60,986 bases of DNA from an uncultured Gammaproteobacteria bacterium (GCA_964535715.1 CAZHUO010000004.1:1-60986); one strand, 5' to 3'. Positions 21,368 through 38,273 are shown, counted from the first letter of the stretch. Notes: a model not told the origin generated them from the sequence alone. Made by a program: numbers and translations.

Positions 21368-21422
21368 TAATTGTCCTATTGAGATTGCTTCGTCGCTACG
21401 CTCCTCACAATGACCGGAGTTA
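21368..21422 (+). other. short solo attC-like hairpin site
   Basis: TAAT-t-gtcctattgag ... ctcacaatgac-cgga-GTTA, with loop cgtcgctacgctc. Confidence 0.35.
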
Positions 21423-21975: not shown

Positions 21976-22851
21976 CTACAATGGCGACTTAATCTGACTT
22001 AAAAACTTATTGGAAACTCTGGTATAAATCTGAGTAGTCGTCAGACTTTTATGGCCAAGCAAAGTCTGGATATAACGAATGTCTACCCCGTCTTCAAGCA
22101 GATGGGTGGCAAAGCTATGTCGCAGGCTATGGCAAGTTGCTGATTTTCTAATTTCGGCATTGGCCAAGGCTTGTTTGAAAATTTTTTCAACCGACCTTGC
22201 AGAAAGGTACAAATTATTATAACCGGAAAAAATGTATTGCCCAAATTCTTTTTGGCAAATGAAATTTTGCAGATCAGAGACAAGTCTTTCCGAAAATATC
22301 GTCTGTCTGTCTTTTCTGCCCTTCCCCTGCCTCACCCATAATATTTTATTTTCCAAATCAAAATCCTTGACTTTCAGCTTAACGACTTCAGATACTCTTA
22401 AGCCGGCAGAATACATTAAAGCCAAAATTAATTTGTGCTTTTTATTATTTACCACATCAAGGAGTTTTCCTATTTCAGCTTTAGACAAAACCACAGGCAG
22501 CTTTTTTTCGCCCTTTGGCAGGCGGAAACTATAATAAAACCGCCTTTTTTTAACCTGGCGGTAATAAAATTTTATGGCATTAAAAGCCAAGCGGGAAGTT
22601 GAAGCAGAAACCTTCCTTTTTTCCAACAAATACCACAGATAATCCTTAATATCTGAGGCAGTAATTGAGGTCGGATCTTTTTGACAGTACCTGATTAAAT
22701 CGGTATTATAAAATAAGTAGGCCTGAACGGTTTTTGGGCTAAAATTACGAATTTCCAGTTCTTTTTTTAGGGATCCCCGCACAAAAACACTATCGAATTT
22801 AATGTGTTCGGGTTTTTCCGCACTTTTTGTATGGGGTAAATCAAAAAACAT
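21976..22851 (-). CDS. tyrosine recombinase, IntI/Xer-like, without the IntI-specific insertion
   Basis: Catalytic set is present: AGLRVSE (R), GKGRKDR (K), [10 protein letters not shown] (HxxR), LLGH, QIYTRV (Y). The N-terminal [21 protein letters not shown] and LPVVLS resemble IntI1 (recalled from memory). Confidence 0.9.
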   Translation of the reverse strand: [291 protein letters not shown]

Positions 22852-22901
22852 AGCGTTGTTCGGTTAATAATTAGAGATATAACCTAGTTATATGCGCTAT
22901 G

Positions 22902-22931
22902 TTGATAATCAAATATTAGCTAATTTATATA
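22902..22931 (+). promoter_or_regulatory. candidate outward (Pc-like) promoter facing the cassette array
   Basis: TTGATA, 18 nt spacer, TATATA. Confidence 0.3.
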
Positions 22932-22941
22932 TAAAAGTCAA

Positions 22942-22963
22942 CAACTTCGCCTAAAAGAAGTTG
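22942..22963 (+). other. attI-like junction
   Basis: caacttc-gcctaaaa-gaaGTTG. The GTT at 22960-22962 begins the first cassette's end-complementarity. Confidence 0.5.
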
Positions 22964-23033
22964 TACGAAATAATGAAAAATTCTTTTTGCCCTATCGGGC
23001 AAAATAATCGGGCTAATTTTAAATTTCTCTTTT

Positions 23034-24032
23034 ATGTATAATCCAGAAAAAAATATTCCATTTGAAAAATCTTCGGCTAGTGCTTCAACGGAAGAAATTT
23101 CTAAATCTTTTGAAAATGAAGAATCGGAACAAAATGATACATCGGAAGCTCAAAGTCAACCTATGCTCGAAAAAAATAAATACAGCCCCGAAGCCAGACA
23201 AGAACAAATTACAGAGCAAGCAACAATGATTCGCAAATGGGCAACAGAACAAGGACTTCAAGAAGGTAAGGACTTTTTAATAATCGAGAATATTAAAGAT
23301 GTTATTGGCAAAGATGAAGAAGTTGTACCGCATGAAACTAAAGCGTTTTATATGGCTATTCACGAAAATCAATACCGAAAATTTCGTGATTATTTTATAT
23401 CAAGATACAACGATGAAATGAAAGCAAAAGATTCAAAAAATGAAGTTCGTTTGGATTATAGTTGGGGTGGACGTTTCCTGGTCGGCTGGGCAGGAGTTCC
23501 TTGTGATACTGTTGCAGCTTCTGATATAGAAAATATAACAGTCCCTACTCATCATCAAGAGTTTAAACGTTTCTTTAAAAGTAAGGCAGGATTTGATTTT
23601 CCAACAGCAGAAACGCTAAATCCGATACTAAGGGAAATGTCAGACAAAGGTTTGGCATTATACGAAACTGCGCTAACCAAATTAAATGAATTAAAAGAAT
23701 CAGAAACTCTTCCTGACGATGGATATGGCTTAATCGATAGCGTTGTTCATGCTATTGAACTACTTAAAAAGGCTCAAAAAGGAAATGCGGTTACAGAACT
23801 CCCCGAAGAGATTCGTGGCACAATGCCAATAGAAACGCGCACTTATGCAGATCTGACATACAACGCAGAAGATATTGCCAACTTTGATCGCGTAATAAAA
23901 ATAACAGGAATAAAAATCCCTACTGAAGCAAGAATTGATAAGATATTTGATCAATTCAATTTTGATAGAAACCAAATGGAACAAATATGTAAAGATTTTT
24001 CTGATTATTTGATGGTAAAAAGAGAAATTTAA
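23034..24032 (+). CDS. cassette 1: hypothetical protein (332 aa)
   Basis: ORF bracketed by about 60-nt inverted repeats at 22961-23020 and 24031-24094. Confidence 0.6.
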   Translation: MYNPEKNIPFEKSSASASTEEISKSFENEESEQNDTSEAQSQPMLEKNKYSPEARQEQITEQATMIRKWATEQGLQEGKDFLIIENIKDVIGKDEEVVPHETKAFYMAIHENQYRKFRDYFISRYNDEMKAKDSKNEVRLDYSWGGRFLVGWAGVPCDTVAASDIENITVPTHHQEFKRFFKSKAGFDFPTAETLNPILREMSDKGLALYETALTKLNELKESETLPDDGYGLIDSVVHAIELLKKAQKGNAVTELPEEIRGTMPIETRTYADLTYNAEDIANFDRVIKITGIKIPTEARIDKIFDQFNFDRNQMEQICKDFSDYLMVKREI

Positions 24033-24090
24033 AATTAGCCCGATATATAATTCGCCTATCGGCGAAATAAGAATTTTTCATTACATCGTA

Positions 24091-24186
24091 CAACACGGCA
24101 TATCTGGTTACGGCTTTTATACAAAAGCCTCCACCCATATTTGCCTCTGCTACGCTACGGCAAACATCAGATATGCCGAAACGTTA
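24091..24186 (+). other. attC-like site 1
   Basis: CAAC-a-cggcatatctg ... cagatatgccg-aaac-GTTA, 96 nt, with two inner hairpins. Confidence 0.7.
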
Positions 24187-24325
24187 TATGAAATACATGT
24201 TTTCCTTTTGGGGCTATCGCCCCAGCTCTTAAAAAAGAATCCGATTTTGTTTTTCTTTTATTATAGAGGGGAAATTCGGTGTTTCCTCCGCTTCGCTCCA
24301 GAAACGATTTTAATTTTAGGGGAAA

Positions 24326-26728
24326 ATGAATACAATAAACCTGCATTACAACAAAATTATGACTGATAAAAAACAGCTCTCTGAGCAAGACATAAGAACA
24401 AAATTCATAACACCGGCTATTAAAAATGCCGGATGGGATGAAATGACACAGCTTCGTGAAGAAGTCTATTTTACTGCTGGACGAATTGAGGTTAAAGGAA
24501 AAATCGTCAAACGAGGTGAAGCCAAAAAAGCTGATTATATCCTTTATCACAAACATAATTTCCCAATTGCGGTTATTGAAGCAAAAGACAACAAGCATTC
24601 AATCGCAAGTGGAATCCAACAAGCACAAGACTACGCTGAAATTTTAGATATACCTTTTGCATATAGCTCAAATGGAGATGGTTTTTTAGAGCATGATTTT
24701 TTTACAGGAAAAGAAAGAAAACTATCTTTAGAAGAATTACCAAGCCCTACTGAACTTTTTGAACGATACAAAAAAGCAAAAGGAATTGATCAAGAAATAG
24801 AAAAAGTTATTAGCACGCCTTACTATTCTGACGGCTCGGGGAAAACTCCGCGATATTATCAAGAGGTTGCTATCAACAGAACTATTGAAGCAGTCGCAAA
24901 GGGACAAAAAAGAATCATGACAGTAATGGCTACCGGAACAGGAAAAACGCTTGTTGCCGGTCAAATTATTTGGCGACTTTGGAAATCTCGAAAAGCAAAA
25001 CGAATTTTATTTTTAGCAGACAGAAATATTTTGGTTGATCAGACAATGGTCAATGATTTTAAACATTTTGGCGACAAAATGATAAAGATTCAAAGAGGAA
25101 AAATCAGTAAAGCCCACGAGATTTATTTAGGACTCTATCAATCGCTCACCGGAAATGATGAAGAAAGAAACGCCTACAAGGAATTTAGTCCGGATTTTTT
25201 TGACTTAGTTATTATTGATGAGTGCCACAGAGGCAGTGCATCGGCAGATTCAGCGTGGCGAGAAGTTTTATCATATTTTGATAATGCCGTGCATATTGGC
25301 TTAACAGCAACACCAAAAGAGACAAATAAAATATCAAATCAAGAATATTTTGGAGAGCCTATTTATACCTACTCACTAAAACAAGGTATTGATGATGGAT
25401 TTTTGGCTCCATACAAAGTGATAAAAATAATGCTTAATAAAGACGTAGGAGGCTATCGACCAAGTATTTTTGATAGAGATCGAGAGGGGCGTGAAATTGA
25501 AGATAAAGAATATACGGAAAAAGATTTTGACAGAACGCTCGTTTTGACCGAAAGAACAAAAACAGTAGCAAAAGAAGTTTCGCAGTACTTAAAAAAGACT
25601 GATCGCTATGCAAAAACGATTATTTTTTGCGTTGATATTGAACATGCCGAACGAATGCGTGAGGCTCTTATTTCTGAAAATAGCGATCTTATAAAAGAAA
25701 ATCGTAAGTATATCATGAAGATTACAGGTGACGATAAAGAAGGAAAAGACGAACTAGACAGCTTTATTGATCCTGAAAATCCCTACCCGACAATTGTTAC
25801 CACGAGCAAGTTGATGACAACCGGCGTAGATGCTCAAACATGCAAACTCATTGTTTTAGATTCAAATATCAACTCAATGACTGAATTTAAACAGATTATT
25901 GGGCGCGGTACTCGTATCAATGAACCATACGGAAAAACACATTTTACAATTCTTGATTTTAGAAATGTAACCAAATTATTTGCCGATCCTGATTTTGACG
26001 GAGATCCTATTCAAATTAAAGAAATGAAACAAGGCGAAGAAATGGAAGTGGAAGAAGCGGATATTAGTGCTGAAATGGTAATCGAGAAAGAACCGCCAAC
26101 AGAAGAAAAGCCAGATATAATTGAAGGTGGTGAAATAGAAGAAGGACACCGAGAAAAGATTTATGTCGATAATGTTCCGGTAAATGTTGCTTACAAACAC
26201 ACGCAATACCTTGACGCAAGCGGAAAACTCATCACAGAATCGCTAAAAGACTATTCTCGCAAACAAATTCGTCAAAAATATGCTTCGTTAGATGACTTTT
26301 TGCAAAATTGGGACAAACACAAAAGAAAGTATTACATTTTTGAGGAACTCTCAAATCAAGGAATAATGCTTTCTGAACTCCAAAAAGACATGGGAGAAGA
26401 AGTCGGAAAAGATCTTGATTTGTTCGATATTGTGATGCACGTGGCTTTTGATAAGAAAAAACTCATGACACGCTCCGAACGTGCCAAAAAAGTAAGAAAG
26501 AAAAACTATCTAACAAAGTACTCGGAAAAAGCACGAAAAGTGCTTGATGCTTTACTGGATAAATACGCAGATGAAGGACTGGAATATATTGAAGATATTA
26601 ATATCCTTCGTATTGATCCGTTTATAACATTCGGCTCACCAGTTGAGATTGTAAAGGAATTTGGAGGAAGAGAACGCTATTTTCAAGCGGTCGAGGAGCT
26701 AGAACGAGAAATTTATGCTTTTAACTAA
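24326..26728 (+). CDS. hsdR: Type I restriction enzyme R subunit
   Basis: N-terminal nuclease region (ADYILY...VIEAK), helicase motifs MATGTGKT and DECHRG, TATP. Confidence 0.93.
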   Translation: MNTINLHYNKIMTDKKQLSEQDIRTKFITPAIKNAGWDEMTQLREEVYFTAGRIEVKGKIVKRGEAKKADYILYHKHNFPIAVIEAKDNKHSIASGIQQAQDYAEILDIPFAYSSNGDGFLEHDFFTGKERKLSLEELPSPTELFERYKKAKGIDQEIEKVISTPYYSDGSGKTPRYYQEVAINRTIEAVAKGQKRIMTVMATGTGKTLVAGQIIWRLWKSRKAKRILFLADRNILVDQTMVNDFKHFGDKMIKIQRGKISKAHEIYLGLYQSLTGNDEERNAYKEFSPDFFDLVIIDECHRGSASADSAWREVLSYFDNAVHIGLTATPKETNKISNQEYFGEPIYTYSLKQGIDDGFLAPYKVIKIMLNKDVGGYRPSIFDRDREGREIEDKEYTEKDFDRTLVLTERTKTVAKEVSQYLKKTDRYAKTIIFCVDIEHAERMREALISENSDLIKENRKYIMKITGDDKEGKDELDSFIDPENPYPTIVTTSKLMTTGVDAQTCKLIVLDSNINSMTEFKQIIGRGTRINEPYGKTHFTILDFRNVTKLFADPDFDGDPIQIKEMKQGEEMEVEEADISAEMVIEKEPPTEEKPDIIEGGEIEEGHREKIYVDNVPVNVAYKHTQYLDASGKLITESLKDYSRKQIRQKYASLDDFLQNWDKHKRKYYIFEELSNQGIMLSELQKDMGEEVGKDLDLFDIVMHVAFDKKKLMTRSERAKKVRKKNYLTKYSEKARKVLDALLDKYADEGLEYIEDINILRIDPFITFGSPVEIVKEFGGRERYFQAVEELEREIYAFN

Positions 26729-26733
26729 AAACT

Positions 26734-28164
26734 ATGTCTAATCTTTCAGGAATTATAAAATCAATCCAAAACATCATGCGTAAAGATCATGGTGTAGATG
26801 GTGATGCCCAAAGGCTTTCACAACTTGTTTGGATGCTTTTTCTTAAAATTTTTGATGAAACCGAAGAAGAAAAAGAAGTTTTGAATCCAAAATACAAATC
26901 ACCAATTTCTGAAGAATTACGCTGGAGAAATTGGGCGGAAAATGACGAAGGAATGACAGGTGATGACTTACTTGAATTTATCAACAACAAACTCTTTCCA
27001 GCATTCAAAAATTTTGAATACACCGCCAAAGATAATGAAGCTGGTTTTATTGTAAAATCTGTTTTTGAGGATAGTTTTAACTACATGAAAAGCGGAACGC
27101 TCATCCGCCAAGTGATCAATAAAATAAACGAGATAAACTTTAATCGAAAAGCCGACCGCGACCAATTCGGAACAATTTACGAGGAACTTTTGAGAGGCCT
27201 GCAAAGTGCAGGAAATGCTGGAGAATTTTACACTCCGCGCGCCTTAACTGAATTTATCGTCGAAATGGTAAATCCCAAATTGGGTGAAAGTATTTTTGAT
27301 CCGGCTTGTGGAACTGGCGGCTTCTTGACTTCGGTTATTGAACACGTGAGAAAAAATGATGTACATACCGCAGAAGACGAGGCGCTTATAAAGAAAACAA
27401 TCAAAGGCAGTGAACTCAAACAGCTTCCGCACATGCTTTGTGTAACAAATATGATGCTTCATGGAATTGCGGCACCGACCAATATCAAACGTGGCGATTC
27501 TTTAGCTCAACCGATTAAAGACATTAGCCCGGAGCAAAGAGTAGATTGTATCGTTGCAAATCCGCCTTTTGGAGGAACAGTTGGAGACGGAATTTTGGCA
27601 AACTTTCCTGCGACTTTAAAAACAAAAGAATCCGCCGACTTGTTTTTGATTCTTTTTATGAAACTCCTCAAGCCAAATGGCAGAGCTGGAATTGTTTTGC
27701 CTGACGGTTCGCTCACTGGTGATGGTGTAAAGGCTCGTATTCGTGAAAAATGGCTGGAAGAATGCAATTTGCACACAATAATCCGACTGCCAAATTCAGT
27801 TTTCTCTCCATATGCGACTGTTGCCACAAATTTATTATTCTTCACCAAAGGCGAACCTACAAAAGAAATTTGGTATTATGAACACCGACTTCCCGAAGGT
27901 CAAAAGTCATATTCCAAGACAAAACCAATTGAAGTCAAAGAATTTGAACCGATCAAAAACTGGTGGAACAATCGTACAGAAAGCGACATTTCATGGAAAG
28001 TTTCAATAGCTGACATTAAAGCCAAAAATTGGGAATTGGACATTAAAAATCCAGCTCAACAAGATGAGGAATATGAACACACAACCGAAGAACTAATTCA
28101 AAAACTAGAAACTTCACTTGATGAAAGCAAACAAATTTTAGAATCTTTAAAAGCCGAATTATGA
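26734..28164 (+). CDS. hsdM: Type I restriction-modification methyltransferase subunit
   Basis: HsdM N-terminal domain, the SAM site DPACGTGGF, and the catalytic NPPFG motif. Confidence 0.95.
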   Translation: MSNLSGIIKSIQNIMRKDHGVDGDAQRLSQLVWMLFLKIFDETEEEKEVLNPKYKSPISEELRWRNWAENDEGMTGDDLLEFINNKLFPAFKNFEYTAKDNEAGFIVKSVFEDSFNYMKSGTLIRQVINKINEINFNRKADRDQFGTIYEELLRGLQSAGNAGEFYTPRALTEFIVEMVNPKLGESIFDPACGTGGFLTSVIEHVRKNDVHTAEDEALIKKTIKGSELKQLPHMLCVTNMMLHGIAAPTNIKRGDSLAQPIKDISPEQRVDCIVANPPFGGTVGDGILANFPATLKTKESADLFLILFMKLLKPNGRAGIVLPDGSLTGDGVKARIREKWLEECNLHTIIRLPNSVFSPYATVATNLLFFTKGEPTKEIWYYEHRLPEGQKSYSKTKPIEVKEFEPIKNWWNNRTESDISWKVSIADIKAKNWELDIKNPAQQDEEYEHTTEELIQKLETSLDESKQILESLKAEL

Positions 28165-29396
28165 GTGAATTGATGCCAATAAAAAAAATTTTCAATTTCG
28201 AAAAAGGAAGTTTGCAAAGTACTAAATGCACGCCAGGTGCTTTTACTTTTGTAACCGCAGGTACGGATTGGAAAACCCACAATGAATTCACTCATGAGAC
28301 AGAAGCTTTGATTTTGGCTGTAGCCGCTGCCGGATCATTAGGCCGTTGTCATTACATAAAAGGTAAATTTATCGCAAGCGACCTTTGCTTTATACTAACC
28401 CCAAAAAATAATGAATTATTACCAGTCGATTTAGAATTTTATCATCAACTTTTTAAAGTATTAAAGGACGACTTGGTCCAAAAAACAGCCACAGGAACAT
28501 CTAAACTATCAATTAACAGATCAAACTTTGGCAATTACAAAATTCCCTATTTTGACATATCGCATCAAAGAAAGTTTAAAAATATTTTAAATAAAATTAT
28601 CGATAAAAAAGAAAAGTTATTATCTTGCAGTAAAAACCAAGAAAATTTAATTGATTTTTTAAGAAAACAAGTTCTTCATGATGTGATTTCTGGTAATCTT
28701 ACTACTGATCAAAAAACAAAAAAATATACTATTGAATCTACAAGCGAGATGTTTGAAAAAATCAGAGAAGTAAGAGAAAAAATGATAAAAGACAAAAAGA
28801 TTAAAAAAGACAAACAACTTCCACCAATCTCAATGAATGAAGTGCCGTTCGAGATACGCTCACAATATTTATGGGCAAGAGTAGACAATTTATTTTTTAT
28901 CAAAAAAGGAGAAACGGGTATAAAAAAGGCCAATCCCGGAATTTATCCATTAGTTGTTACTGCCGAAGAGCGATTAACACATAATGTTTATGAAATTGAC
29001 GGCGAGGCTATTTTAATACCAATGGTTTCGTCTACGGGACACGGTCATGCATCACTTAAAAGAATTCACTTTCAAGATGGTAAATTTGCACTAGGCTCAA
29101 TCCTTTCAGCTTTAATACCAATTACTCCAGAGTTTATCTCTGCAAAATTTTACTACTATTTTTTAAACAACTACAGAAACCAATTAATCGTAAGTAGAAT
29201 GGGTGGAGCCGCAAATGTTGCACTTACGCAAAAAGCATTAAGAAGTATAATCGTTCCTGTATTACCAATAGAGGTTCAACAGAAAGCAGTTAGATTGTTA
29301 GAGTGCGCTAATTTAATAGAAGGAAAAATAAAACAAAACAAACAAGATGCAGAAATGCTGATGCAAAGTTTTTTGGTTGAGGCTTTTAAAAGTTAA
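28161..29396 (+). CDS. hsdS: Type I restriction-modification specificity subunit
   Basis: Two target-recognition halves separated by a coiled spacer, with an ATGA overlap onto hsdM. Confidence 0.85.
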   Translation: MSELMPIKKIFNFEKGSLQSTKCTPGAFTFVTAGTDWKTHNEFTHETEALILAVAAAGSLGRCHYIKGKFIASDLCFILTPKNNELLPVDLEFYHQLFKVLKDDLVQKTATGTSKLSINRSNFGNYKIPYFDISHQRKFKNILNKIIDKKEKLLSCSKNQENLIDFLRKQVLHDVISGNLTTDQKTKKYTIESTSEMFEKIREVREKMIKDKKIKKDKQLPPISMNEVPFEIRSQYLWARVDNLFFIKKGETGIKKANPGIYPLVVTAEERLTHNVYEIDGEAILIPMVSSTGHGHASLKRIHFQDGKFALGSILSALIPITPEFISAKFYYYFLNNYRNQLIVSRMGGAANVALTQKALRSIIVPVLPIEVQQKAVRLLECANLIEGKIKQNKQDAEMLMQSFLVEAFKS

Positions 29397-29398
29397 TT

Positions 29399-30871
29399 AT
29401 GGATATATACTTTTCAGACTATTTTAAGATAAAACCGGAAGTACTTGAAAAGTATGGTGCATTTAACATTTCCCTTGTTTCCGATTTACCATTATTTATT
29501 GATCCCTTTTTACTTTTCAATAGCAAAAAACCTGAATACCAAGAATTGCATAATCAGATCATTGAATACCTAAAATTTTTAAAACAAAAATCAACAACTG
29601 GCGAAATAGAAAAAGGTGCACTTGAATCTTGGTATAAATTTAGCGAGGTAGAACAAAATTGGCTTGGTTTTGCAAAAGGTGGGAACAAGGGTAGTGGTCT
29701 TGGCATGGACTTTGCAAGTGCGCTAAATGGAAACTTGCATAAAATTTTTAAAAAATTTGGAGAGGAAGAGATAACAAAAGGCAGTCATCTTGAAAAACTT
29801 TGCCTTATTAAAGAAGGTGTAGGTAAAGATAGTATCAGCGATTTTGCGACAAATTTAATCAAAGAATTTTTACTTACATACACAGAAGAATTTGCAAAAG
29901 AACACATAGATCAATCTTTAACCGATATTTTCCGTGTTCAGAGAGTAAAATTTAATACTGAAACTGAAACTTGGGAGGAAAAAGAATTCGTTTTGCCTAA
30001 ATTCAAAAATGATTACGTATTACTTACACCAAAAGAATTATTAACAAAGGACGATACTTGGATTAACAAAACTGACTTAATAGAAGATTTTGACAGAATC
30101 CCAAATGCAATATCGAATGAACAGCTTAGATTTCAAGTAAATAACTACCTACAAAGCCAACTCACAAACGAGCCCGACAAAGAGCCAACAAAGAAAGAAA
30201 AGGGAGCTGCAATCTTTGCAACATTACAAAAGTTTCCAGAACTTATAGACTTTTTCATTAAATACAAGGAAGAAAATGGAGATTTGGCAGAGAGCATAAG
30301 TAATCAAAAAATCATTTTTTCTGAACAGGTGTACATCGCCAATGTTCAAAATTTTGTAAAAGGACTAAAGAAAACAGAATTTTATGATAGCCCACCCACT
30401 GCAAGCTTTGAAGAAGCAAAAAAGAAAATTGAGATTCTAAAAAAATTCGTTGAAAACAAAGATGGTTATCGTCTTTTTTACGACAAAAACGGAAATGTAA
30501 TCTCAAATGAAAGTGATCTACAGCTACTTTTTATGCTAGCATGTAGTGAATCAATTTTTGACATAAACAGAGAGCCAAACAATGGACGTGGTCCGGTAGA
30601 TTTTACAGTTTCATTCGGGAAAAAAGACAAAACACTAGTCGAGTTTAAATTGGCTGGCAACAAGCAATTAAAAAGAAACTTACAAAAACAAGTTGAGATA
30701 TATCAAGAAGCAAACGAAACTGACATGGCATTTAAAGTCATAATTTATTTTACTGAAGATGAAGAAAGTCGAGCAAAGAGAATTTTAAAAGAAATTGGAC
30801 TTGAAAATCAGAAGAATATAATATTAATAGACGGACGAAATGATAATAAGCCATCAGCATCAAAAGCATAA
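29399..30871 (+). CDS. hypothetical protein coupled to hsdS, with a C-terminal PD-(D/E)XK-like motif
   Basis: 490 aa, starting 2 nt after the hsdS stop. The C-terminus reads ...ESDLQLLF...GRGPVDFTVSF...LVEFKLAG (D...ExK pattern). Confidence 0.6.
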   Translation: MDIYFSDYFKIKPEVLEKYGAFNISLVSDLPLFIDPFLLFNSKKPEYQELHNQIIEYLKFLKQKSTTGEIEKGALESWYKFSEVEQNWLGFAKGGNKGSGLGMDFASALNGNLHKIFKKFGEEEITKGSHLEKLCLIKEGVGKDSISDFATNLIKEFLLTYTEEFAKEHIDQSLTDIFRVQRVKFNTETETWEEKEFVLPKFKNDYVLLTPKELLTKDDTWINKTDLIEDFDRIPNAISNEQLRFQVNNYLQSQLTNEPDKEPTKKEKGAAIFATLQKFPELIDFFIKYKEENGDLAESISNQKIIFSEQVYIANVQNFVKGLKKTEFYDSPPTASFEEAKKKIEILKKFVENKDGYRLFYDKNGNVISNESDLQLLFMLACSESIFDINREPNNGRGPVDFTVSFGKKDKTLVEFKLAGNKQLKRNLQKQVEIYQEANETDMAFKVIIYFTEDEESRAKRILKEIGLENQKNIILIDGRNDNKPSASKA

Positions 30872-31073
30872 CGAATTGTTTTCGGTCGGGGCAATTCCCC
30901 CTTTTGTTCCCCTCTTGCCCCTCCCTCAAACAAAAAAGAAATAATGTGTTTTGGGCTTCGGGCATTCACCCCTTTAGTTCCCCTCTGCTCTTCGCCCAAA
31001 ACGGAAAAACAAAACCGGATTCTTTTTTAGAGCGATTTGCTATCGCAAATCAAAGGAAAACATGTACATCATA

Positions 31074-31169
31074 TAACACGGCATATCTGGTTACGGCTTT
31101 TATACAAAAGCCTCCACCCATATTTGCCTCCGCTACGCTACGGCAAACATCAGATATGCCAAAACGTTA
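31074..31169 (+). other. attC-like site 2
   Basis: TAAC...aaaacGTTA. It matches site 1 at 93 of 96 positions. Confidence 0.7.
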
Positions 31170-31242
31170 GTTGCAATTTTTGAGTCGGCCTACTACACGA
31201 ATTAACAAACTTTATAAACATTCAATAACTGATAATTATATT

Positions 31243-31725
31243 ATGAAAAAATTTCTTAAGAACCCTCTGGTCAAGAACATTTTATCGGCATTAGCCGTGG
31301 CCATTTTCGGCTTTATACTGTTAATTCTTACATTTCTCTTTGATGCCATTTTCCAAAGTTTAGTAGATGGTATCATTAAACTTTTTACGCCAGTTGATAT
31401 CAATATGACCTGGTATTGGTTTCCGCCAATAAAACACGCTTCATTTATTGTCATCATTAGCCTAATTTCATGGCTTGTTTTCAGATCAAAACTAAAAGTG
31501 CTTTACAAAGCGATTTATATGACTGTGCCCGTTGCTACTGTTTTAGTGACTGTAGGAATGTTTTTGTATCGCTGGCCGATAGTTGTTTATTCTGTTGGTA
31601 GTTTACTTTGTATTGGCACTTTATACTATTTCTATCGCACCAAACAGCCATGGCTTTATTATTATACTGTGGTTTTAGTAGGGTTTACCTTGGCAATTTT
31701 TACTCTATTGGGTGGAGAAATCTAG
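31243..31725 (+). CDS. cassette 3: multi-TM membrane protein
   Basis: Start moved to ATG 31243, because the track start is a TTG inside the cassette-end repeat. About 4 hydrophobic helices. Confidence 0.6.
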   Translation: MKKFLKNPLVKNILSALAVAIFGFILLILTFLFDAIFQSLVDGIIKLFTPVDINMTWYWFPPIKHASFIVIISLISWLVFRSKLKVLYKAIYMTVPVATVLVTVGMFLYRWPIVVYSVGSLLCIGTLYYFYRTKQPWLYYYTVVLVGFTLAIFTLLGGEI

Positions 31726-31849
31726 TACTTATTTTTTCAAACGCAATAACCTAAATTCTTATTGATTAACGGCCGACTCAAAAACTTTGATTTTTTGCCT
31801 TCGGCATCGTTGCACTAAAAATCAACCACTCCAAGTATTCGTGGGCAAC

Positions 31850-31942
31850 TAACAGGCATTAACCGACTTCGCTCGGTTGCACCTCACTCCGTCCAAATTT
31901 GCTCCGCTACGCTCCACAAACTTCGGTTAATGCCATACGTTA
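31850..31942 (+). other. attC-like site 3
   Basis: TAAC-a-ggcattaaccga ... tcggttaatgcc-atac-GTTA, 93 nt. Confidence 0.65.
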
Positions 31943-31983
31943 TGTGAAATTTTTCTAAGGCGAGCTTCTAAATAACAACGATT

Positions 31984-32397
31984 ATGAAACTTTGTAGTGC
32001 ATGTCTATTGGGTTTAAAGTGCCGTTACGATGGCAAAAGTAAGCCCCATGAAAAAGTTATAAATTTGGCCACCAAGGAAACTTTGATTCCCGTCTGTCCT
32101 GAACAGTTGGGTGGCTTATCTACTCCGCGAAAACCTGCTGAGCAAAAAAATGGTCGAGTTATAACTGAGGATGGCGATGATATTACGATAAATTTTGAAA
32201 ATGGCGCGAAGCAGGTTTTAGAATTGGCCAAATTATACAATATAAAAAGCGCTATCCTCAAACAGCGAAGTCCTTCTTGCGGATGTGGCCAAATTTATGA
32301 CGGAACTTTTTCAGGGGCTATTATTGAAGGTGATGGTATCACTACAAAGTTTCTTAAAGAAAATGGTATCGAAGTGCTAACAGAGGATGATCTATAA
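31984..32397 (+). CDS. cassette 4: DUF523-family protein
   Basis: N-terminal CSACLLGLKCRYDG, characteristic of DUF523 (family assigned from memory). Confidence 0.7.
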   Translation: MKLCSACLLGLKCRYDGKSKPHEKVINLATKETLIPVCPEQLGGLSTPRKPAEQKNGRVITEDGDDITINFENGAKQVLELAKLYNIKSAILKQRSPSCGCGQIYDGTFSGAIIEGDGITTKFLKENGIEVLTEDDL

Positions 32398-32426
32398 TCG
32401 ACGGCTCGCTTTAGAAAAACATCACA

Positions 32427-32606
32427 TAACAAAGAATATCCGGCTCAAAAATTTTTCACTAATATATTTTTAATGTAAGAAAAATTTTCTCGACCCAAAT
32501 CCCGCGCGGTGTGAAATTAAGCCATTTGCCACTTAAAAAGTTTGGGAATAGAATAAGTTTTACGCTCTTAATATGGGCGCGGGACTTCGGATATTCTTAA
32601 ACGTTA
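32427..32606 (+). other. attC-like site 4 (long, 180 nt)
   Basis: TAAC-a-aagaatatccg ... cggatattctt-aaac-GTTA, with inner pairing cccgcgc/gcgcggg. Confidence 0.6.
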
Positions 32607-32683
32607 GAAGAAACTACTAGAAAACTTAGAAATTTCTTATGTATATCTGCTAACTAATAAAATTAATCAATAAATAAAACAAC

Positions 32684-32947
32684 ATGGAACAAGAAAAATA
32701 CAAGCCACAAGAATTCTATAAAGATACTGAAATTAACAGAGAAGACATAATTGCCGAGACGGCAATAATTTTAGAAAACACCAAAAAATTTCCTGATCCA
32801 ACCAGGGCTGATATAGTTGGAATTACCAAGGCAAAAGTAGAAATCAGAAAGGTATTAAGAAACAAAGGACTTAGTGAATGGAATATTGAATGCCTTGAAC
32901 CTGAAATTCGCCAAGATGCCCAAAAACTTCTAACTTTGTTTAAATAA
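32684..32947 (+). CDS. hypothetical protein (87 aa)
   Basis: ORF only. It is the first unit after the last attC-like site. Confidence 0.45.
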   Translation: MEQEKYKPQEFYKDTEINREDIIAETAIILENTKKFPDPTRADIVGITKAKVEIRKVLRNKGLSEWNIECLEPEIRQDAQKLLTLFK

Positions 32948-33066
32948 TTCGTTTTATTTAGGAGTAAGAAGAATTTTAGGCAAACATTTTCCCGATGTGT
33001 ATAAACTTAAACGGCCAATCATCGCATGTCAATTACCAAAAGACTTTATTATTAACTATAAATAAT

Positions 33067-33612
33067 ATGCCTCCACATTGCGACACAATGGACGGTCCCA
33101 TTGTAAAAATGGCCCAAAAGGCACTTGACGAAAAAAATATAGATTTAATTTTGCCTTATGCTTACAAAGATGGTGAAAAAGAAATTAAAGACGCTTTTCA
33201 AAAAGTTATTGCCATTAGAAATACCAATGATTCTGTCAGAAAAATTGCGGATTTATATTTCTTTGAAACAGTAGTAAGAGTTCATCGCGCAGGCGAAGGG
33301 GCTCCATATACGGGGCTAAAGCCTGCCGGCTTAAGCGAGGGTCCGATAATCCCCATTGCCGAAAAAGCAATAGAAACTGAATCGGCAGTCGAATTAATCA
33401 ATACTCTGTGCCATTATGTAGAAGAATATGTCGGCAGCCGTTTCAAAAAAATGTTAGAACTAAAAAAAGATAAAGATGCAAATGTCGATAAAGCGCGCGA
33501 ATATGTTGAGGCTATGCTTGGCCTTCAAGTTTACTCGCATAAAGTTTATTTATCACTTATAGCGGATCCCCATGCCAAAGTTGAACATAAGGCAGAAGCT
33601 CATAAACATTAA
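33067..33612 (+). CDS. conserved hypothetical protein (MPPHCDTMDGP N-terminus, DUF6448-like from memory)
   Basis: Start moved to ATG 33067. His-rich C-terminus. Confidence 0.55.
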   Translation: MPPHCDTMDGPIVKMAQKALDEKNIDLILPYAYKDGEKEIKDAFQKVIAIRNTNDSVRKIADLYFFETVVRVHRAGEGAPYTGLKPAGLSEGPIIPIAEKAIETESAVELINTLCHYVEEYVGSRFKKMLELKKDKDANVDKAREYVEAMLGLQVYSHKVYLSLIADPHAKVEHKAEAHKH

Positions 33613-33661
33613 TAATATCATGGACAAAAATCCTATAAGCGTTTGACTGTAGCCAATAACA

Positions 33662-34033
33662 ATGGATATTATCATAAAAAAATCAAAGCTAAACAAAAAG
33701 GGCATTTTTGCGGCCAGAAATTTTAAAAAAGGTGATGTCATAATAATATGGAAATCTAAAAAAATTTTATCAAAAAAGGAACTAGGCCAACTTCCCAAAT
33801 CAGAACTCCATTATATATCCAACTACAAACCAAATGAGTTTTTGCTTCAACAAGCGCCTGAAAGGTATGTAAATCATTCATGTAATCCGAATACCAAAGT
33901 AAGAAACAATAGCGATATTGCAATCAATGATATAAAAAAAGGAGAAGAAATAACCTCGGACTATTCAGTTGCCAACATCCAACAGCACTTTGTTTGTAAA
34001 TGCGGCAGCAAAAACTGCAAAGGATTCATATAA
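33662..34033 (+). CDS. SET-domain protein (putative lysine methyltransferase)
   Basis: YVNHSCNPN, GEEITSDY and a C-terminal CKCGSKNC post-SET-like motif. Confidence 0.85.
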   Translation: MDIIIKKSKLNKKGIFAARNFKKGDVIIIWKSKKILSKKELGQLPKSELHYISNYKPNEFLLQQAPERYVNHSCNPNTKVRNNSDIAINDIKKGEEITSDYSVANIQQHFVCKCGSKNCKGFI

Positions 34034-34131
34034 AAAAACAACACTTAATTATTTATTTAAATTTGAAAGGAGGCAGACCTTGATTTTAGCCTCTTTTTTG
34101 CTATAATTATATTAGAAATAACTGAAATAAT

Positions 34132-34488
34132 ATGGAAAATGAAAACTTGGACACATTTACCCTGGAAGAGCAAAATGAATTAATTGAAAGGCATTTTAGA
34201 AACGGCAAGGGATTAAGTGCTGATTATATTAACGCCTATGCTTATATTGACGCACTGCTGCGGGATATGGAGCTTGAAAAAATTAAGCCGGTGAAAACCT
34301 ACCGCGAATATTTGATGAATACGCCGGAATACTACCACCATACAATGGAACTAAGCGACGATAAGGCAATTGCCGAACTGGACCGGTTGGTTAATGAATT
34401 CAATTCGGATGTGGAAAGGATAAAGAGAGAAAAAGATGCAAATACAGTTAGAAATTTTATCCGGTCTGTAAATGATTTGGTAAAATAA
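34132..34488 (+). CDS. hypothetical protein
   Basis: 118-aa acidic helical ORF. Confidence 0.45.
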   Translation: MENENLDTFTLEEQNELIERHFRNGKGLSADYINAYAYIDALLRDMELEKIKPVKTYREYLMNTPEYYHHTMELSDDKAIAELDRLVNEFNSDVERIKREKDANTVRNFIRSVNDLVK

Positions 34489-34618
34489 AATAATAATTAA
34501 TAATAAATAATAAATTTTTAATCAATATTTAATATTAAATATTTTAATATTTATTTCAAATTTATTATTAATTATTTGATATTCTAACTTTAATTAACTA
34601 TTATATTTTATTAAACTT

Positions 34619-35308
34619 ATGAAAAAAATAACCTTATTTTTGCTGACGGTTTTTGCCATGGCTTTGGCCGGCTGTGGCCAGCAGGTGCCTGGGCTAAACC
34701 AAAACACAAACCAGCCAACGGCAAATTTAAATGAAAACACAAACGCACCCTCACCACAAAAACTGATCTATTTGGTTTCTACCGAAGATTCATTAAAATA
34801 TTGTAATGGCGCGGAAATGGATAGCGAAGGCTTCAAAAAGACAATTACAAAAGAAGTCACAACTGATATATCGGTTGAAGGCAAGACAACCTTGGAAATA
34901 GCTAAAATGATTATTGCTAATGCCACTACCGGCCAGTGCAAAAATACCTTGGAAAAAAATGATTTAAGAATAGAAGGAAACACCGCCTATTTTGCGCCGA
35001 TAGACGGCTGGACCGGAGTATCAATTGCAATGTGCAGCTGCATCCCGCAGATTGAGGTAAATTTCATGTATTTGCTTGGCATAGAAAAAGTGGTCTTTGA
35101 AAGTTCAATACAAGCTGAAGCGGCTGATTCTTTAACAGCGGAACAAAAAAGAGCATTTGAAAAATGCAAAACGCTAAGCGGCGAAGCCCGTTTGGAATTA
35201 AGCGCTTTATATGGAGAAAAGCAAATATTTTGCGCTTTTGCCGGCACTTCAGGGGAATGCACGCAGGGCGAGTTGAATAGCGGAGCTTGCTTTAAAGAAA
35301 AAAAATAA
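34619..35308 (+). CDS. lipoprotein, function unknown
   Basis: Lipobox MALAGC followed by an N/Q-rich linker. Confidence 0.65.
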   Translation: MKKITLFLLTVFAMALAGCGQQVPGLNQNTNQPTANLNENTNAPSPQKLIYLVSTEDSLKYCNGAEMDSEGFKKTITKEVTTDISVEGKTTLEIAKMIIANATTGQCKNTLEKNDLRIEGNTAYFAPIDGWTGVSIAMCSCIPQIEVNFMYLLGIEKVVFESSIQAEAADSLTAEQKRAFEKCKTLSGEARLELSALYGEKQIFCAFAGTSGECTQGELNSGACFKEKK

Positions 35309-35329
35309 TTTCAATTGTTAAACTAAAAT

Positions 35330-35794
35330 ATGGGAAAAAATAAATCTTTTTATCTATACCGCAGGCCGGTGCAGGCGTTAGTACTTAGGCCTTTGCCGTC
35401 TTCTGAAGACGAGTATCTGATTTCACAAAGAATGCCTGAGGGCTATTCTTACAGTGATGCAATGTATAGATTTCCTGCTGGTTACAGAGAATCATGCATA
35501 ATTGATTATAAAGACTATAATTATGACGGGTCGCATTCCTTGGAAAAACAAAAGGAATTTATCCTCAAAGACTTTACTGATGAGGGTTTTATGCCAGAAG
35601 AAGTCCAAGAGCTTATTGATAATCTAGAGGTAAAGGAAGGAGATACTCTTAGCTTAGGATATGACGAATCAATAAAATGGCTAAAACTTCATCCGGAATT
35701 TGAAAGCGAAGCCGGGCAAATATTCAGTAAAATAAGAAATGAAGTTCAGGCGGAAATAAGCTCAGAAAGAAACAAACATTCAAAGAGAAGATAA
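35330..35794 (+). CDS. hypothetical protein
   Basis: 154-aa ORF. Confidence 0.45.
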   Translation: MGKNKSFYLYRRPVQALVLRPLPSSEDEYLISQRMPEGYSYSDAMYRFPAGYRESCIIDYKDYNYDGSHSLEKQKEFILKDFTDEGFMPEEVQELIDNLEVKEGDTLSLGYDESIKWLKLHPEFESEAGQIFSKIRNEVQAEISSERNKHSKRR

Positions 35795-35907
35795 GAAAAA
35801 TAAAGTAAAAAAATAATAAAATAAAATAGGATTGCATTAATTTCTTGTTTCTTAATTTTTTATATAATTTAATTTATAAATTTTAACTTATTAATAAACA
35901 AAAACTT

Positions 35908-36552
35908 ATGAAAAAAATTACCGCCATAGCTTCACTCATTATAGTTATAAGCCTTGCAGGCTGTACTGCAAAACAATCTAATAAATTAAATATGGATACA
36001 AATAAAGACAGCACGATTAAATGCAATCAGGATTGCCAAAAATCAGCTTCGACCGATTTAATTCTCAATCCGGTATGCGTATACTACCCCGAAAATGGAA
36101 ATTCGGAAGAATATAAACATATATTTACAAATGAAGATTCCGATTATTTTTCGAGATTTGAAAAGCGTCTCAAAGAGCTAGAAAAAGAAGAGGATTTTTT
36201 GAATATACAACAAATATGTAAATATAATGAATCTACTATTGGCTTTTCGGCCCGAAGTAAAAAATCTGAAAAGTGGCTTGTCGGTGGCTATAAAATTATC
36301 GGGGATTTTGTTGAAGGCGATAAAGAATATTTTGCTTACGAAAAACTTGATAATAACATACAGATTAGTGGCTTTATAGACAATGGCAATAAAATAATAT
36401 TATCATCAATTAGTGAATATTACGGAATTGAACTTAAAAATTATGCTTTTGACATAATGGAAGACAAATTATTAACAATAAAAGATTGCGAAATAAATAA
36501 TAATGCAGGTGACCAAACGGTTTTTTGTTCAATAGATTTATTAAAGAATTAA
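35908..36552 (+). CDS. lipoprotein, function unknown
   Basis: Lipobox ISLAGC. Its 5' leader is similar to those of 34619 and 36592. Confidence 0.65.
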   Translation: MKKITAIASLIIVISLAGCTAKQSNKLNMDTNKDSTIKCNQDCQKSASTDLILNPVCVYYPENGNSEEYKHIFTNEDSDYFSRFEKRLKELEKEEDFLNIQQICKYNESTIGFSARSKKSEKWLVGGYKIIGDFVEGDKEYFAYEKLDNNIQISGFIDNGNKIILSSISEYYGIELKNYAFDIMEDKLLTIKDCEINNNAGDQTVFCSIDLLKN

Positions 36553-36591
36553 AATTATTAATAATTTAACTTATTAATAAATTAATAACAT

Positions 36592-37263
36592 ATGAAAAAA
36601 ATAATTTTAACAGCGTTAATCGGGACAAGCCTAATTTTGGCCGGCTGTGCCCAACAAACGCCTTTACAAAACCAAAATACAGAACAGCCGGCATTAAACC
36701 AAAACACCAACTCGGCTGATTCTGAAATAGATCAAATTGAATCAAGATGCAGCTTAGAGCCGCAAAGCGGAAACTGCAAAGCCTATATGCCAAAATATTA
36801 CTTTGATCAGAAAGAAAATGCCTGCAAGGAATTCGTCTGGGGCGGCTGCAACGGTGTAGTTCCGTTTGAAACTTTAGTTGAATGCCAAAATGCCTGCGAA
36901 AATAAAGCGGCAATGGCCAATCCCGCTTCGACTAACTGTCTTGAAAAAGGCGGGACAATTGACATCCGAAAAAACAAAAACGGCGAATACGGAGTCTGCC
37001 TTTTTGAAGACAACCGGCAGTGCGAGGAATGGGCGCTTTTACACGGCGAATGTCCTTCTAATGGAGCAAAAATTACCGGCTTAGAAAATGAAGCGGAAAT
37101 TTACTGTGTTATTACCGGCGGGCAACTTCAGGGTCTTGATACAGAAACTCCGATGTGCAAGCGAATAGACGGTACACTTTGCAATGCCCAGGCAAACCTG
37201 GACGGCGACTGTCCAAATCCGCATGATCCAAATCCCAGCGCCGGCAACGTGGAAGCATTGTAA
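36592..37263 (+). CDS. lipoprotein with a Kunitz/BPTI-like domain plus two DUF333-like repeats
   Basis: Lipobox LILAGC. Cysteine spacing is 8/15/7/11/3 with FVWGGC (36748-36897). This is followed by NPASTNCLEKGG...CEEWALLHGEC and a second, degenerate repeat. Confidence 0.7.
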   Translation: MKKIILTALIGTSLILAGCAQQTPLQNQNTEQPALNQNTNSADSEIDQIESRCSLEPQSGNCKAYMPKYYFDQKENACKEFVWGGCNGVVPFETLVECQNACENKAAMANPASTNCLEKGGTIDIRKNKNGEYGVCLFEDNRQCEEWALLHGECPSNGAKITGLENEAEIYCVITGGQLQGLDTETPMCKRIDGTLCNAQANLDGDCPNPHDPNPSAGNVEAL

Positions 37264-37296
37264 ATTAATAATAGTATATTTTAAAATTATAAAAAT

Positions 37297-37530
37297 ATGA
37301 ACAACGAAAAAGAAATAAAATTTGAAAATTATTTGGATAATGAAGAAAGGGAGGCTAGAGATTGGCTTAAATCGGGAATGGAAGAAATTGGACTACAAAA
37401 AGATTTGATTGAAAGTCGTTTGGCGCTCTTTATTCAGTTTATAAGAACCATAAAGCAATCATCTGGATTTAAAAAACCGATGGAAATTGCAAAAGATTAT
37501 TTGGAAGACATAAAAAAAGCGAAAGAATAA
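37297..37530 (+). CDS. hypothetical protein
   Basis: 77-aa ORF. Confidence 0.4.
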   Translation: MNNEKEIKFENYLDNEEREARDWLKSGMEEIGLQKDLIESRLALFIQFIRTIKQSSGFKKPMEIAKDYLEDIKKAKE

Positions 37531-37626
37531 CACAGTTGACTTTAAATATTTTTTGTGTTAACCTTTTTTTATTAATGTTTTTTTATTGGCCTTTTTAAAA
37601 ATGGACTTTGTCCAAGGAGTAAAGCA

Positions 37627-37998
37627 ATGATTGCACAAGTTAATGATGTATTGTATTTTTCTTCTGACAGATTGACGATGCAGGGCTTTAAAGCCGGCGA
37701 AAAAACAAAAACCAGAGGCGGACTTAAGTTTGAAGCAGTCGGTTTTGGCCGGGGCCAGCACCTGCGGGCCGGGCAGCTTTATGCGCATTTATCTGCCAAC
37801 GGCGAGGATTTCTCGATTCAAATTGACCATTATTTCCGAAACAGGCTCGGCAATGGCGGTAAGGCCAGGCTCACCGGCTTAAGAATTAAGCAAATCATTA
37901 CTGCAAAACCGCAGGATGTCACAGTTGAGGAAAATTGTGGTAAACGGCAAATAGCCGAATCTGACCTGGACGCCTGGTATAATCGTGCCTTCAACTAA
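37627..37998 (+). CDS. hypothetical protein in a G+C-richer patch
   Basis: 123-aa ORF whose composition visibly differs from its surroundings. Confidence 0.4.
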   Translation: MIAQVNDVLYFSSDRLTMQGFKAGEKTKTRGGLKFEAVGFGRGQHLRAGQLYAHLSANGEDFSIQIDHYFRNRLGNGGKARLTGLRIKQIITAKPQDVTVEENCGKRQIAESDLDAWYNRAFN

Positions 37999-38014
37999 CC
38001 CAGAAAGGCGTCAA

Positions 38015-38244
38015 ATGGAAATAAGGGTAATTGACAACCTCGGCAATGTTCTAAAAAAGCTCCGGCTTGAAAATAATTTAAGCCAAGATGAACTGGCCTA
38101 AAACTAAATTTTAGCCAAGCATTTATCTCTCGGCTGGAGAACAATGACGAAACAGGGACTTTAGCAACCTGGATCAAAATTGCCATTAATTTCGGCATAA
38201 AATTATCTGAATTTTTTCAAATGGCTGAATGCCAAAGGGATTAG
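38015..38244 (+). pseudogene. XRE-family HTH regulator, frameshifted
   Basis: MEIRVIDNLGNVLKKLRLENNLSQDELA stops at 38099. The HTH continues in another frame as KLNFSQAFISRLENNDETGTLATWIKIAINFGIKLSEFF. Confidence 0.65.
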
Positions 38245-38262: not shown

Positions 38263-38273
38263 ACCAATAAAAA

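Follow-up and report, generated by a model that had tools for sequence, protein, structure and literature searches.

The closest described relatives of the locus reported here are the sedentary chromosomal integrons, such as the Vibrio arrays with attC sites of the Vibrio cholerae repeat (VCR) type. In these, the gene for a tyrosine recombinase lies divergently beside an attI site, cassettes are co-oriented and end in folded sites with AAC and GTT boxes and a crossover at G|TT, the start of each cassette complements the inverse core of its own site, and the chromosomal place is conserved while cassette content varies. All of these traits recur in a stretch of 60,986 nucleotides ("the window"; GCA_964535715.1, CAZHUO010000004.1:1-60986), where a complete type I restriction-modification (R-M) operon is carried at positions 24184-31166. 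The window is the entire contig C4 of a 1.36-Mb host genome (52 contigs, completeness 95%); its relatives carry the name Candidatus Buchananbacteria, and the host is read as a bacterium of the Candidate Phyla Radiation (CPR). We consider it likely that 24184-31166 is a single cassette in a sedentary chromosomal integron-like array of this CPR bacterium. The platform, that is, the recombinase gene, the attI-like site, and the cassettes behind it, departs from canonical integrons in recombinase, sites, and cassette ends. Unlike Vibrio-type integrons, it has no IntI-specific domain and no conserved extrahelical bases, its cassettes carry a conserved leader and trailer, and 9 of 28 site-to-site intervals exceed 2 kb.

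Two further systems invite comparison. In the Xer-dependent pdif modules of Acinetobacter plasmids, sites of Xer-like recombinases bound gene modules, with inverted symmetry at the ends. The pdif sites are 28 bp long, double-stranded, and alternate in orientation, whereas the sites here are hairpins of 90-180 nt, in one orientation, beside a dedicated recombinase gene. Archaeal integrons are like the present case in being integron-type arrays beyond the classical bacterial phyla, found in metagenome-assembled genomes; however, they are reported to keep the IntI-specific domain that the recombinase here lacks (Ghaly et al., 10.1101/2022.02.06.479319). Our searches of open-access papers yielded no account of such arrays in CPR bacteria, only unrelated papers and resistome, defensome, and other surveys.

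Defence systems in integrons have been in print since 2024 (10.1101/2024.07.02.601686; 10.1101/2024.07.02.601719). A survey of 85,204 cassettes reports that such systems never have more than two components, that restriction systems of types II and IV are prevalent, and that long loci of the CRISPR-Cas or BREX kind are absent (10.1101/2024.07.02.601686). The integron defence cassettes of Darracq et al. and Kieffer et al. resemble the present one in their antiphage cargo, which here is a three-subunit type I system plus a fourth gene in 7 kb. Classical R-M cassettes such as XbaI, known as an integron cassette (cited in Ghaly et al. 2023, PMC10661359), belong to type II and have two genes, as opposed to the type IB hsdRMS operon with an accessory gene found here. 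No type I R-M integron cassette came up among the open-access papers listed, as judged by title or abstract. Defence cargo of classical integrons is reported as streamlined, and its limit of one or two components has been taken as a size constraint on how cassettes recombine and arise; with a whole type I R-M system and accessory gene in one 7-kb cassette, the two-component limit is not general.

The R-M cassette (24184-31166; 6,983 bp) is the second of four co-oriented cassettes behind the attI-like site. All four, with their genes, sites, terminal repeats, leader, and trailer, are given on the + strand. Direct repeats of 113 nt (24082-24194 and 31065-31177), 94% identical and spaced 6,983 bp apart, contain its two bounding attC-like sites, A and B, and the sequences at 24183|24184 and 31166|31167 are alike, reading ...AAACG|TTA.... 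Between them, hsdR, hsdM, hsdS, and a fourth gene are separated by gaps of 5, -4, and 2 nt. The hsdR open reading frame (ORF; 24326-26728) belongs to the EcoAI family, type IB, scoring 1154 bits against NF046051 (cut-off 550), and contains ResIII, EcoEI_R_C, and HSDR_N. Its native start is probably the ATG at 24359; similarity to the relatives L061-L063 starts at 24358-24368, and their hsdR ORFs span 789 aa (L061, L062) or 810 aa (L063). The hsdM gene (26734-28164) matches N6_Mtase (E=1.7e-72), HsdM_N, and PADLOC MTase_I (E=1.2e-205), and hsdS (28161-29396) matches Methylase_S in two stretches and PADLOC Specificity_I. With HsdR above its family cut-off and HsdM and a two-target-domain HsdS in the same operon, the system has what defines an EcoAI-type (type IB) R-M system.

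The fourth gene (29399-30871) encodes a 490-aa protein assigned to DUF8370/DUF8371. PADLOC lists it as the candidate defence gene PDC-M36A (PDLC04597; E=6.1e-24, residues 6-249), and the 27 Atlas clusters nearest to it carry DUF8370 and DUF8371, with scores up to 0.99. Profile searches of Pfam-A and NCBIfam gave no match to it; a C-terminal D...ExK motif was spotted by eye. A Pfam search of the four genes found no transposase domain. The GC content of the cassette (0.354, against 0.366 for the genome) does not indicate a foreign origin. The sequence-only reading had placed these four genes between nearly identical attC-like sites and regarded the whole operon as one cassette. The gene families match, its coordinates are exact to the base, and the structure bears it out: there is a co-oriented site at each end, no internal site, and terminal complementarity to the cassette's own arm. 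The R-M cassette is real, correctly delimited, and by structure single.

Four attC-like sites lie in the window. Site A (24080-24195; 120.3 bits, E=1.3e-24) has its AAC ending at 24094 and the G of its GTT at 24183, and site B (31063-31178; 112.3 bits) has these at 31077 and 31166; site C (31839-31951) and site D (32416-32615) are likewise covariance-model matches. They share the layout TAAC, A, an 11-12-nt stem, and, after the variable part, the returning stem, 3-4 nt, and GTTA. A strict scan of the window for this layout returned the four array sites (24092-24185, 31075-31168, 31851-31941, and 32428-32605) and one extra place, 2909-3050, which lies inside an ORF, is unsupported by the covariance models, and was rejected. 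When the whole genome was searched for hairpins under looser settings (10-nt stem, up to 2 mismatches), 1,783 matches came back, which are noise. A first covariance model, built from the four window sites, collected 36 sites from the window and the loci of relatives, and a second model was trained on these 36 and run over the whole window with filters off. It found only the four significant sites, with a weak match at the attI-like hairpin (22928-22972; 15.2 bits, E=0.54) and, inside the operon, none better than E=1.1. The own genome holds no further site. A search of 20000-42000 against Rfam at E<=1 returned nothing relevant, only one chance snoRNA match.

As bottom-strand single-stranded DNA, the sites are predicted to fold at -22.2 (site A), -20.7 (site B), and -16.8 kcal/mol (z=-5.36, -4.47, and -2.8), with a short R helix, a 3-nt bulge, an uninterrupted L helix of 10-12 bp, and a branched tip. 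In the 36-site alignment, AAC and GTT are invariant (36/36), and each site consists of this box pair, an internal loop of 1 x 3-4 nt, a covarying 12-bp stem, and a variable tip. Paired cells amount to 97.4%, against 76.1% in shuffles and 25-40% with partners slid, and compensatory changes occur at 10 of the 12 stem pairs, figures favoured by the fit of the alignment to the covariance model. The sites thus have the R''/R' boxes, paired L''/L' stretches, and single orientation of canonical attC sites. The core of site B is 97.8% identical to sites in two genomes of genera other than the host's (L035, G019:C26, and L046, G037:C30), one of them from another family, which suggests either recent cassette exchange or strong conservation of this site type; same-core sites, 94-98% identical, stand beside other cargo in other genomes.

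Where is the crossover point? In G001, a genome of the same genus, the 109 nt from the recombinase gene to 22960 have a 90% identical counterpart, and past GTT the two are unrelated, the sequences at the break being GTTGTACGAAAT in the window and GTTAGGCGAAAT in G001. Strains agree with this. In X6, a metagenome run of another study, a 975-nt contig has 0 differences to 22045-22962 and is then unlike the window, and a 776-nt contig equals 31166-31941 exactly, which is cassette 3 with G|TT at either end, at a different depth. By these comparisons, an attI-like site beside the recombinase gene with insertion at G|TT appears to be present, as in canonical integrons. Furthermore, in every cassette the four variable letters after GTT complement the four before the AAC of its own site: GTTATATG and CATATAAC in the R-M cassette, GTTAGTTG and CAACTAAC in cassette 3, GTTATGTG and CACATAAC in cassette 4, and GTTGTAC and GTACAAC in cassette 1. 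Such complementarity is the rule in classical integrons and puts the cut at or before TT.

Complementarity at the cassette ends extends much further, to 27-75 nt as compared with 7 in sedentary chromosomal integrons. The first ~72 nt of the R-M cassette are the inverted complement of the ~72 nt ahead of its own attC core, forming a left terminal inverted repeat (24184-24255; inner hairpin GGGGC-TATC-GCCCC) that pairs with a right one (31004-31077; inner hairpin GATTTGC-TATC-GCAAATC). Two 26-nt arm pairs, 24183-24208/31052-31077 and 24230-24255/31004-31029, are 92% and 96% complementary. In a gapped local alignment, the first 90 nt scored 32.5 against the reverse complement of the 90 nt that precede the core of site B, far outside the shuffle control (n=2,000; mean 7.4, standard deviation 1.2, maximum 14), which upholds the claim of the sequence-only reading that the outer ~70 nt are inverted complements. 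In cassette 1, the arms 23007-23033 and 24018-24044 (27 nt) are 100% complementary, and the ends 22960-23033 and 24018-24094 match at 84% (BLAST). The terminal inverted repeats are a general, cassette-specific feature of the platform. When the 5' 90 nt of 19 cassettes with two bounding model matches were compared with the 90 nt before the site, the mean score was 17.7 against the cassette's own pre-attC arm and 7.8 against either neighbour's, and the own arm exceeded the control in 15 of 19. Only two cassettes scored above the R-M cassette, one of 3,225 bp with a 970-aa protein (41) and one of 2,905 bp (34). Small hairpins in the arms (24209-24229, 31030-31051, 22985-23004, and 24051-24066) have a TATC loop on the same strand in both arms; as compensatory changes set their stems apart, the hairpins are no plain inverted copies of one another.

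For the R-M cassette, the circular junction was also modelled. It has a predicted fold of -83.3 kcal/mol, compared with -42.9 and -33.8 kcal/mol for the array contexts, and runs from an outer stem through two small opposed hairpins with TATC loops and an inner stem to the attC core; the in silico junction of cassette 1 is alike in shape and energy. Such a fold would place the crossover ~75 nt inside a palindrome of ~260 nt, in contrast to classical attC sites, where it lies at the outer edge. A crossover deep inside a long palindrome would account for the outer arms seen at both ends of each cassette.

The recombinase (21976-22851, - strand) is a 291-aa IntI/XerA-like tyrosine recombinase with Pfam Phage_integrase and Phage_int_SAM_4 domains, encoded divergently from the array. 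It passes the NCBIfam model NF040815 (XerA/integron integrase; 234 bits, cut-off 220) and scores 222 bits, in two stretches, against TIGR02249 (integron integrase), below the cut-off of 265. Its best solved relative is VchIntIA (2a3v; E=1.7e-45), followed by archaeal XerA-type proteins (E~1e-40) and XerD (E=7e-23). The catalytic residues R152, K177/K180, H241, R244, H267, and Y276 are aligned to VchIntIA and invariant in the family, as expected of an integron integrase. The IntI-specific domain is missing, and for this reason we call the platform integron-like and keep it apart from canonical integrons. Twelve aligned family members, those of 340-380 aa included, are all without an insertion at the IntI patch; the longer ones differ by an N-terminal extension. 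The family is large: of 8,000 proteins scored, 7,375 reach E<=1e-20. Its members are mostly of 270-295 aa, and those of Patescibacteria bear the NCBI names "site-specific tyrosine recombinase/integron integrase" or "tyrosine-type recombinase/integrase."

Between the recombinase gene and the array, the intergenic region (22852-22962, + strand) ends in the attI-like hairpin (CAACAACTTC...GAAGTTG), with the putative crossover G|TT at 22960-22962; attI-like site and recombinase lie 1.3 kb upstream of the R-M cassette. A second copy of the intI-5'/attI-like region is present elsewhere in the own genome (C14:23977-24100). It is ~80% identical, with a degraded hairpin and no adjoining recombinase gene, and looks like the relic of a second platform; decay of such platforms would then occur.

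Is this arrangement peculiar to one genome? In a sample of 61 genomes (the own plus 60 relatives), 26 have a strong recombinase match (E<=1e-50) and 35 have sites. With stricter search filters, sites occur in 24 of 26 recombinase-positive and 11 of 35 recombinase-negative genomes, kin being non-independent in this count. All 21 second-model matches in 19 recombinase loci have the strand that an array leading away from the recombinase would require, and of the 11 loci whose array side reaches at least 800 nt, 9 contain a site. G001, of the same genus, preserves the order recombinase-GNAT-thrS, a second genus has recombinase-thrS, and the genes at 40608-45370 form the distal array flank in the relative G015. 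The suggestion of the sequence-only reading that the operon sits on a mobilizing platform is therefore strengthened by an IntI-like recombinase and attI-like site upstream and by homologous arrays beside homologous recombinases in relatives. As a side observation, one genome without a strong recombinase match has 17 sites over 43 kb, with two gaps of 11-13 kb (G057:C1:227927-270979).

How might such a cassette move? The parts are the divergent tyrosine recombinase, an attI-like site with a G|TT crossover, and co-oriented cassettes with terminal attC-like sites. By analogy with integrons, the recombinase would cut at the G|TT of two sites, freeing the cassette as a circle, which would then go back in at the attI-like site or at a different attC-like site. 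In such a circle, the ~72-nt arms would come together again as a hairpin of ~260 nt. The cargo is the complete type IB R-M system together with the DUF8370/DUF8371 gene as an accessory defence candidate, held in a reusable shell of leader and trailer.

Several points weigh against this account. (i) Neither the empty-site joint 24183->31167, which the sequence-only reading had put forward as a check, nor the circle joint 31166->24184 is present in the contigs of four metagenome runs, a negative limited by the fact that contigs drop rare variants. (ii) The linkage of the flanks over each ~89-nt repeat comes from assembly, and the contigs of the probable source run break inside both sites. (iii) With 94% identity between the flanking sites, deletion or movement of the segment could come about by homologous recombination as well. 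(iv) In the VchIntIA alignment, residues 183-244, the IntI-specific domain, stand opposite only query residues 200-218 (19 residues). Archaeal IntIs are reported to keep this domain, which is called necessary for integron recombination (10.1101/2022.02.06.479319). (v) The folds and the stem columns of the 36-site alignment contain no conserved single extrahelical bases, which canonical integrons have in the bottom strand. (vi) Eleven genomes carry sites without a strong recombinase match, and two recombinase loci with 4-8 kb on the array side (L028, L029) have no site at E<=0.01. Three joints that did turn up, 24195->32481 and 30974->31898 in run X5 and 22979->24068 in X6, were rejected as cross-matches of repeats, with sides of 20-23 letters. 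Run X4, from another study, has pieces at 100% identity over 24187-30873 and 31178-31420 and no cover of 22636-23703, a gap that is no proof of absence. The X6 contigs have depths of ~19 for the recombinase, ~65 for cassette 3, and ~2 for the operon pieces; contig depth is a weak measure, and the differences are only a hint.

The best surviving alternative, which we judge improbable, is that the operon is a cassette by descent and now a fixed fossil, too large or too rarely folded to move and kept by R-M addiction. It would explain why the contigs of the four runs contain no variant without the operon, why just four sites are left in the array, and why the 7.9 kb past site D (32604-40474) lie siteless in a variable zone; the relic attI-like region on C14, with no recombinase, is in line with it. 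Yet the two sites, the two arms, and the reading frame of the recombinase are all intact, and in X6 the recombinase/attI region and cassette 3 are on long identical contigs, whereas the operon is in short, low-depth pieces.

A poorer account, to which we give only a slim chance, makes the sites ordinary intergenic palindromes, of the repetitive extragenic palindromic (REP) kind or terminators, with the operon having arrived by another route and the platform a coincidence. It can draw on the lack of observed recombination in those contigs, on the recombinase being without an IntI domain and from a very large family whose members are often named XerD (7,375 of 8,000 scored at E<=1e-20), and on the 11 of 35 genomes that carry sites without a strong recombinase match. 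It sits badly with an own genome whose only four sites are all in the array, with 21 of 21 matches in recombinase loci co-oriented, with invariant AAC/GTT boxes around a covarying stem, with strain and genus comparisons that break at G|TT, and with sites in 24 of 26 recombinase-carrying genomes. A transposon-like element with 72-nt inverted ends that entered an attC-like site and duplicated a target of ~89-113 nt is highly improbable: its terminal inverted repeats do adjoin flanking direct repeats, but 24184-31166 holds no transposase as expected of a DNA transposon bounded by terminal inverted repeats, the flanking repeats are the 113-nt attC-like sites themselves, the inverted repeats begin exactly at the G|TT crossover, arms also occur in cassettes with unlike flanking sites (cassettes 3 and 4; 15 of 19 overall), same-core sites (94-98% identical) stand beside other cargo elsewhere, and target duplications of ~90 nt are not known as a footprint of transposition.

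On the reading of the operon as a cassette in an integron-like array, its size calls for comment. A four-gene cassette had been called atypical in the sequence-only reading. This is so against classical integrons, whose known cassettes are far smaller, and not within the platform, where the 28 site-to-site intervals (E<=0.01) have a median of 1,039 bp and 9 are longer than 2 kb, the R-M cassette being the largest; the intervals could be inflated by missed sites, except that the R-M interval has no intergenic room for one. In G060:C8, a 5,063-bp interval holds T5orf172, an EcoRI-like methylase, GmrSD/HNH, a YafQ-like gene, and HTH-IrrE, and a 2,905-bp cassette carries a ThsB-like TIR protein with a type II methylase and nuclease pair. 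A 4,267-bp interval at locus L031 is weak support for large cassettes because it consists of many small ORFs with gaps of ~100 nt, among which diverged sites may be hidden. Separately, locus L045 (G037:C64, 264-7498) has one site and a conserved leader followed by a co-oriented gene row of ~7 kb to the contig start, with no further site; the row encodes a NUDIX protein, a carbamoyltransferase, a HAD protein, a 3-dehydroquinate-synthase (DHQS)-like protein, a second NUDIX protein, and an AAA protein.

What is known of the cargo's relatives? The closest hsdRMS operon, on a metagenome contig (L061), is 92.6% identical over 24368-28168 and again alike over 29319-29401, and others follow at 85% (L062), 84% (L063), and 83% (L066). 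Similarity runs from the ATG at 24359 to a shared TAATTATG over the hsdS stop and the next start. The sequence-only reading had proposed to look in other genomes for the operon with these termini; close relatives were found, without sites of this family (0 in 9 loci, L061-L068 included). In the fourth position, the relatives have a reverse transcriptase, an unknown 459-aa protein, DUF5655, or an OLD-like ATPase. A large serine recombinase adjoins the operon in three of these contigs, two of which also have a terminase. By comparison across L061-L066, the position after hsdS (29394-29401) reads as a swap slot marked by the conserved TAATTATG junction. The fourth gene has its own relative, 85% identical in nucleotides, in G010:C10, a genome of a genus other than the host's, where a type III Res-like gene comes before it and hicBA and dnaN come after it; this contig has no attC-like site (filters off, best match 15 bits inside an ORF). 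A string after its trailer, CGCCTAAC-A-CGGG, was considered as a site remnant by eye only and is not supported.

The cargo is enclosed by sequences that recur around other genes. The leader (24256-24338), with the motif GGTGTTTYC-TCCGCTnCGCTmC-GAAAACGATTT, extends up to the start region and is conserved in 11 cassettes of 9 genomes, ahead of unrelated genes, and stretches that come after sites in at least 9 other genomes share 74-86% identity with the 142 nt between 24184 and the start region. The genes behind it encode a 970-aa protein or a PPDK-like one of 685 aa, or form a NUDIX/carbamoyltransferase/DHQS-like operon or a set of T5orf172, an EcoRI-like methylase, and GmrSD. The trailer (30872-31003) consists of two related G/C-hairpin repeats. 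The first (30877-30967) accompanies gene 4 in G010 at 85% identity, and the second is 85% identical to the trailer of the unrelated cassette with the 970-aa protein (G019:C34). Since that cassette has both leader and trailer in common with the R-M cassette, the same shell surrounds different cargo. By these comparisons, the cassette reads as a mosaic, in which hsdRMS and gene 4 have separate relatives and leader and trailer surround unrelated cargo. The shell probably makes the cassette an autonomous expression unit, as its recurrence around unlike genes suggests. Consensus scans of 22700-33000 showed no excess over shuffles, with 32 promoter-like sites, against 32.6 in shuffles, and 11 terminator-like sites, against 7.4. 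The leader hairpin GTTTYC-TCCGCTnCGCTmC-GAAAAC, near invariant in 11 leaders of 9 genomes, may be a protein-binding or regulatory element, and its loop motif TCYGCTACGCTAC recurs in the inner hairpins of the attC cores at 24139-24166 and 31122-31149.

Taken jointly, these features allow a broader proposal, which we judge somewhat less likely than not: that Patescibacteria carry a widespread and undescribed sister system of integrons, with a short IntI/XerA-like recombinase that lacks the IntI patch, sites without extrahelical bases, a crossover inside a long palindrome that leaves matching arms on every cassette, and a leader and trailer shell that makes operons of up to 7 kb into self-expressing cassettes. 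The base-exact junctions of shell and cargo (one at the start codon of hsdR, one at the TAATTATG that separates hsdS from gene 4, and one past the trailer of gene 4) would then be footprints of cassette making. Unrelated cargo in a common leader and trailer with exact junctions gives a concrete handle on cassette origin. Standard integron pipelines use a clustering distance of 4 kb between sites. Arrays like this one are likely to escape surveys because the platform fails both the IntI-domain profile and the 4-kb clustering filter. For CPR bacteria, with genomes of ~1 Mb under heavy phage pressure, a locus that swaps whole defence operons would vary immunity economically.

The other members of the array are smaller. 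Cassette 1 (22961-24183) contains a 332-aa ORF (23034-24032) with no Pfam, NCBIfam, or PADLOC match, between terminal inverted repeats of ~75 nt. Cassette 3 (31167-31939) contains a 184-aa ORF and ends in site C, and cassette 4 (31940-32603) encodes a member of the 2-thiouracil desulfurase family (PF04463) and ends in site D. Between site D and the conserved distal flank, ~7.9 kb (32604-40474) are filled with small genes on the + strand, including DUF6448, a SET domain, Kunitz/BPTI plus DUF333, Bax1-I, and aspartate decarboxylase. The covariance model found no attC-like site there, and the genes may be former cassettes or ordinary variable genes.

Two features on the other side of the recombinase gene deserve mention. 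At 21382-21414 lies a repeat of ~35 nt (..GATTGCTTCGTC..GCTCCTC.CAATGAC), with similar copies at C4:51502, C11:21534, and C16:9917. In the metagenome runs its summed depth is very high and its loose ends are many; it is a short element common to many genomes. Further upstream, a 727-aa ORF on the - strand (14848-17031) fuses a MiaB-like radical SAM methylthiotransferase (UPF0004 and Radical_SAM) to MiaA (IPPT), joining two successive steps of tRNA A37 modification in one protein.

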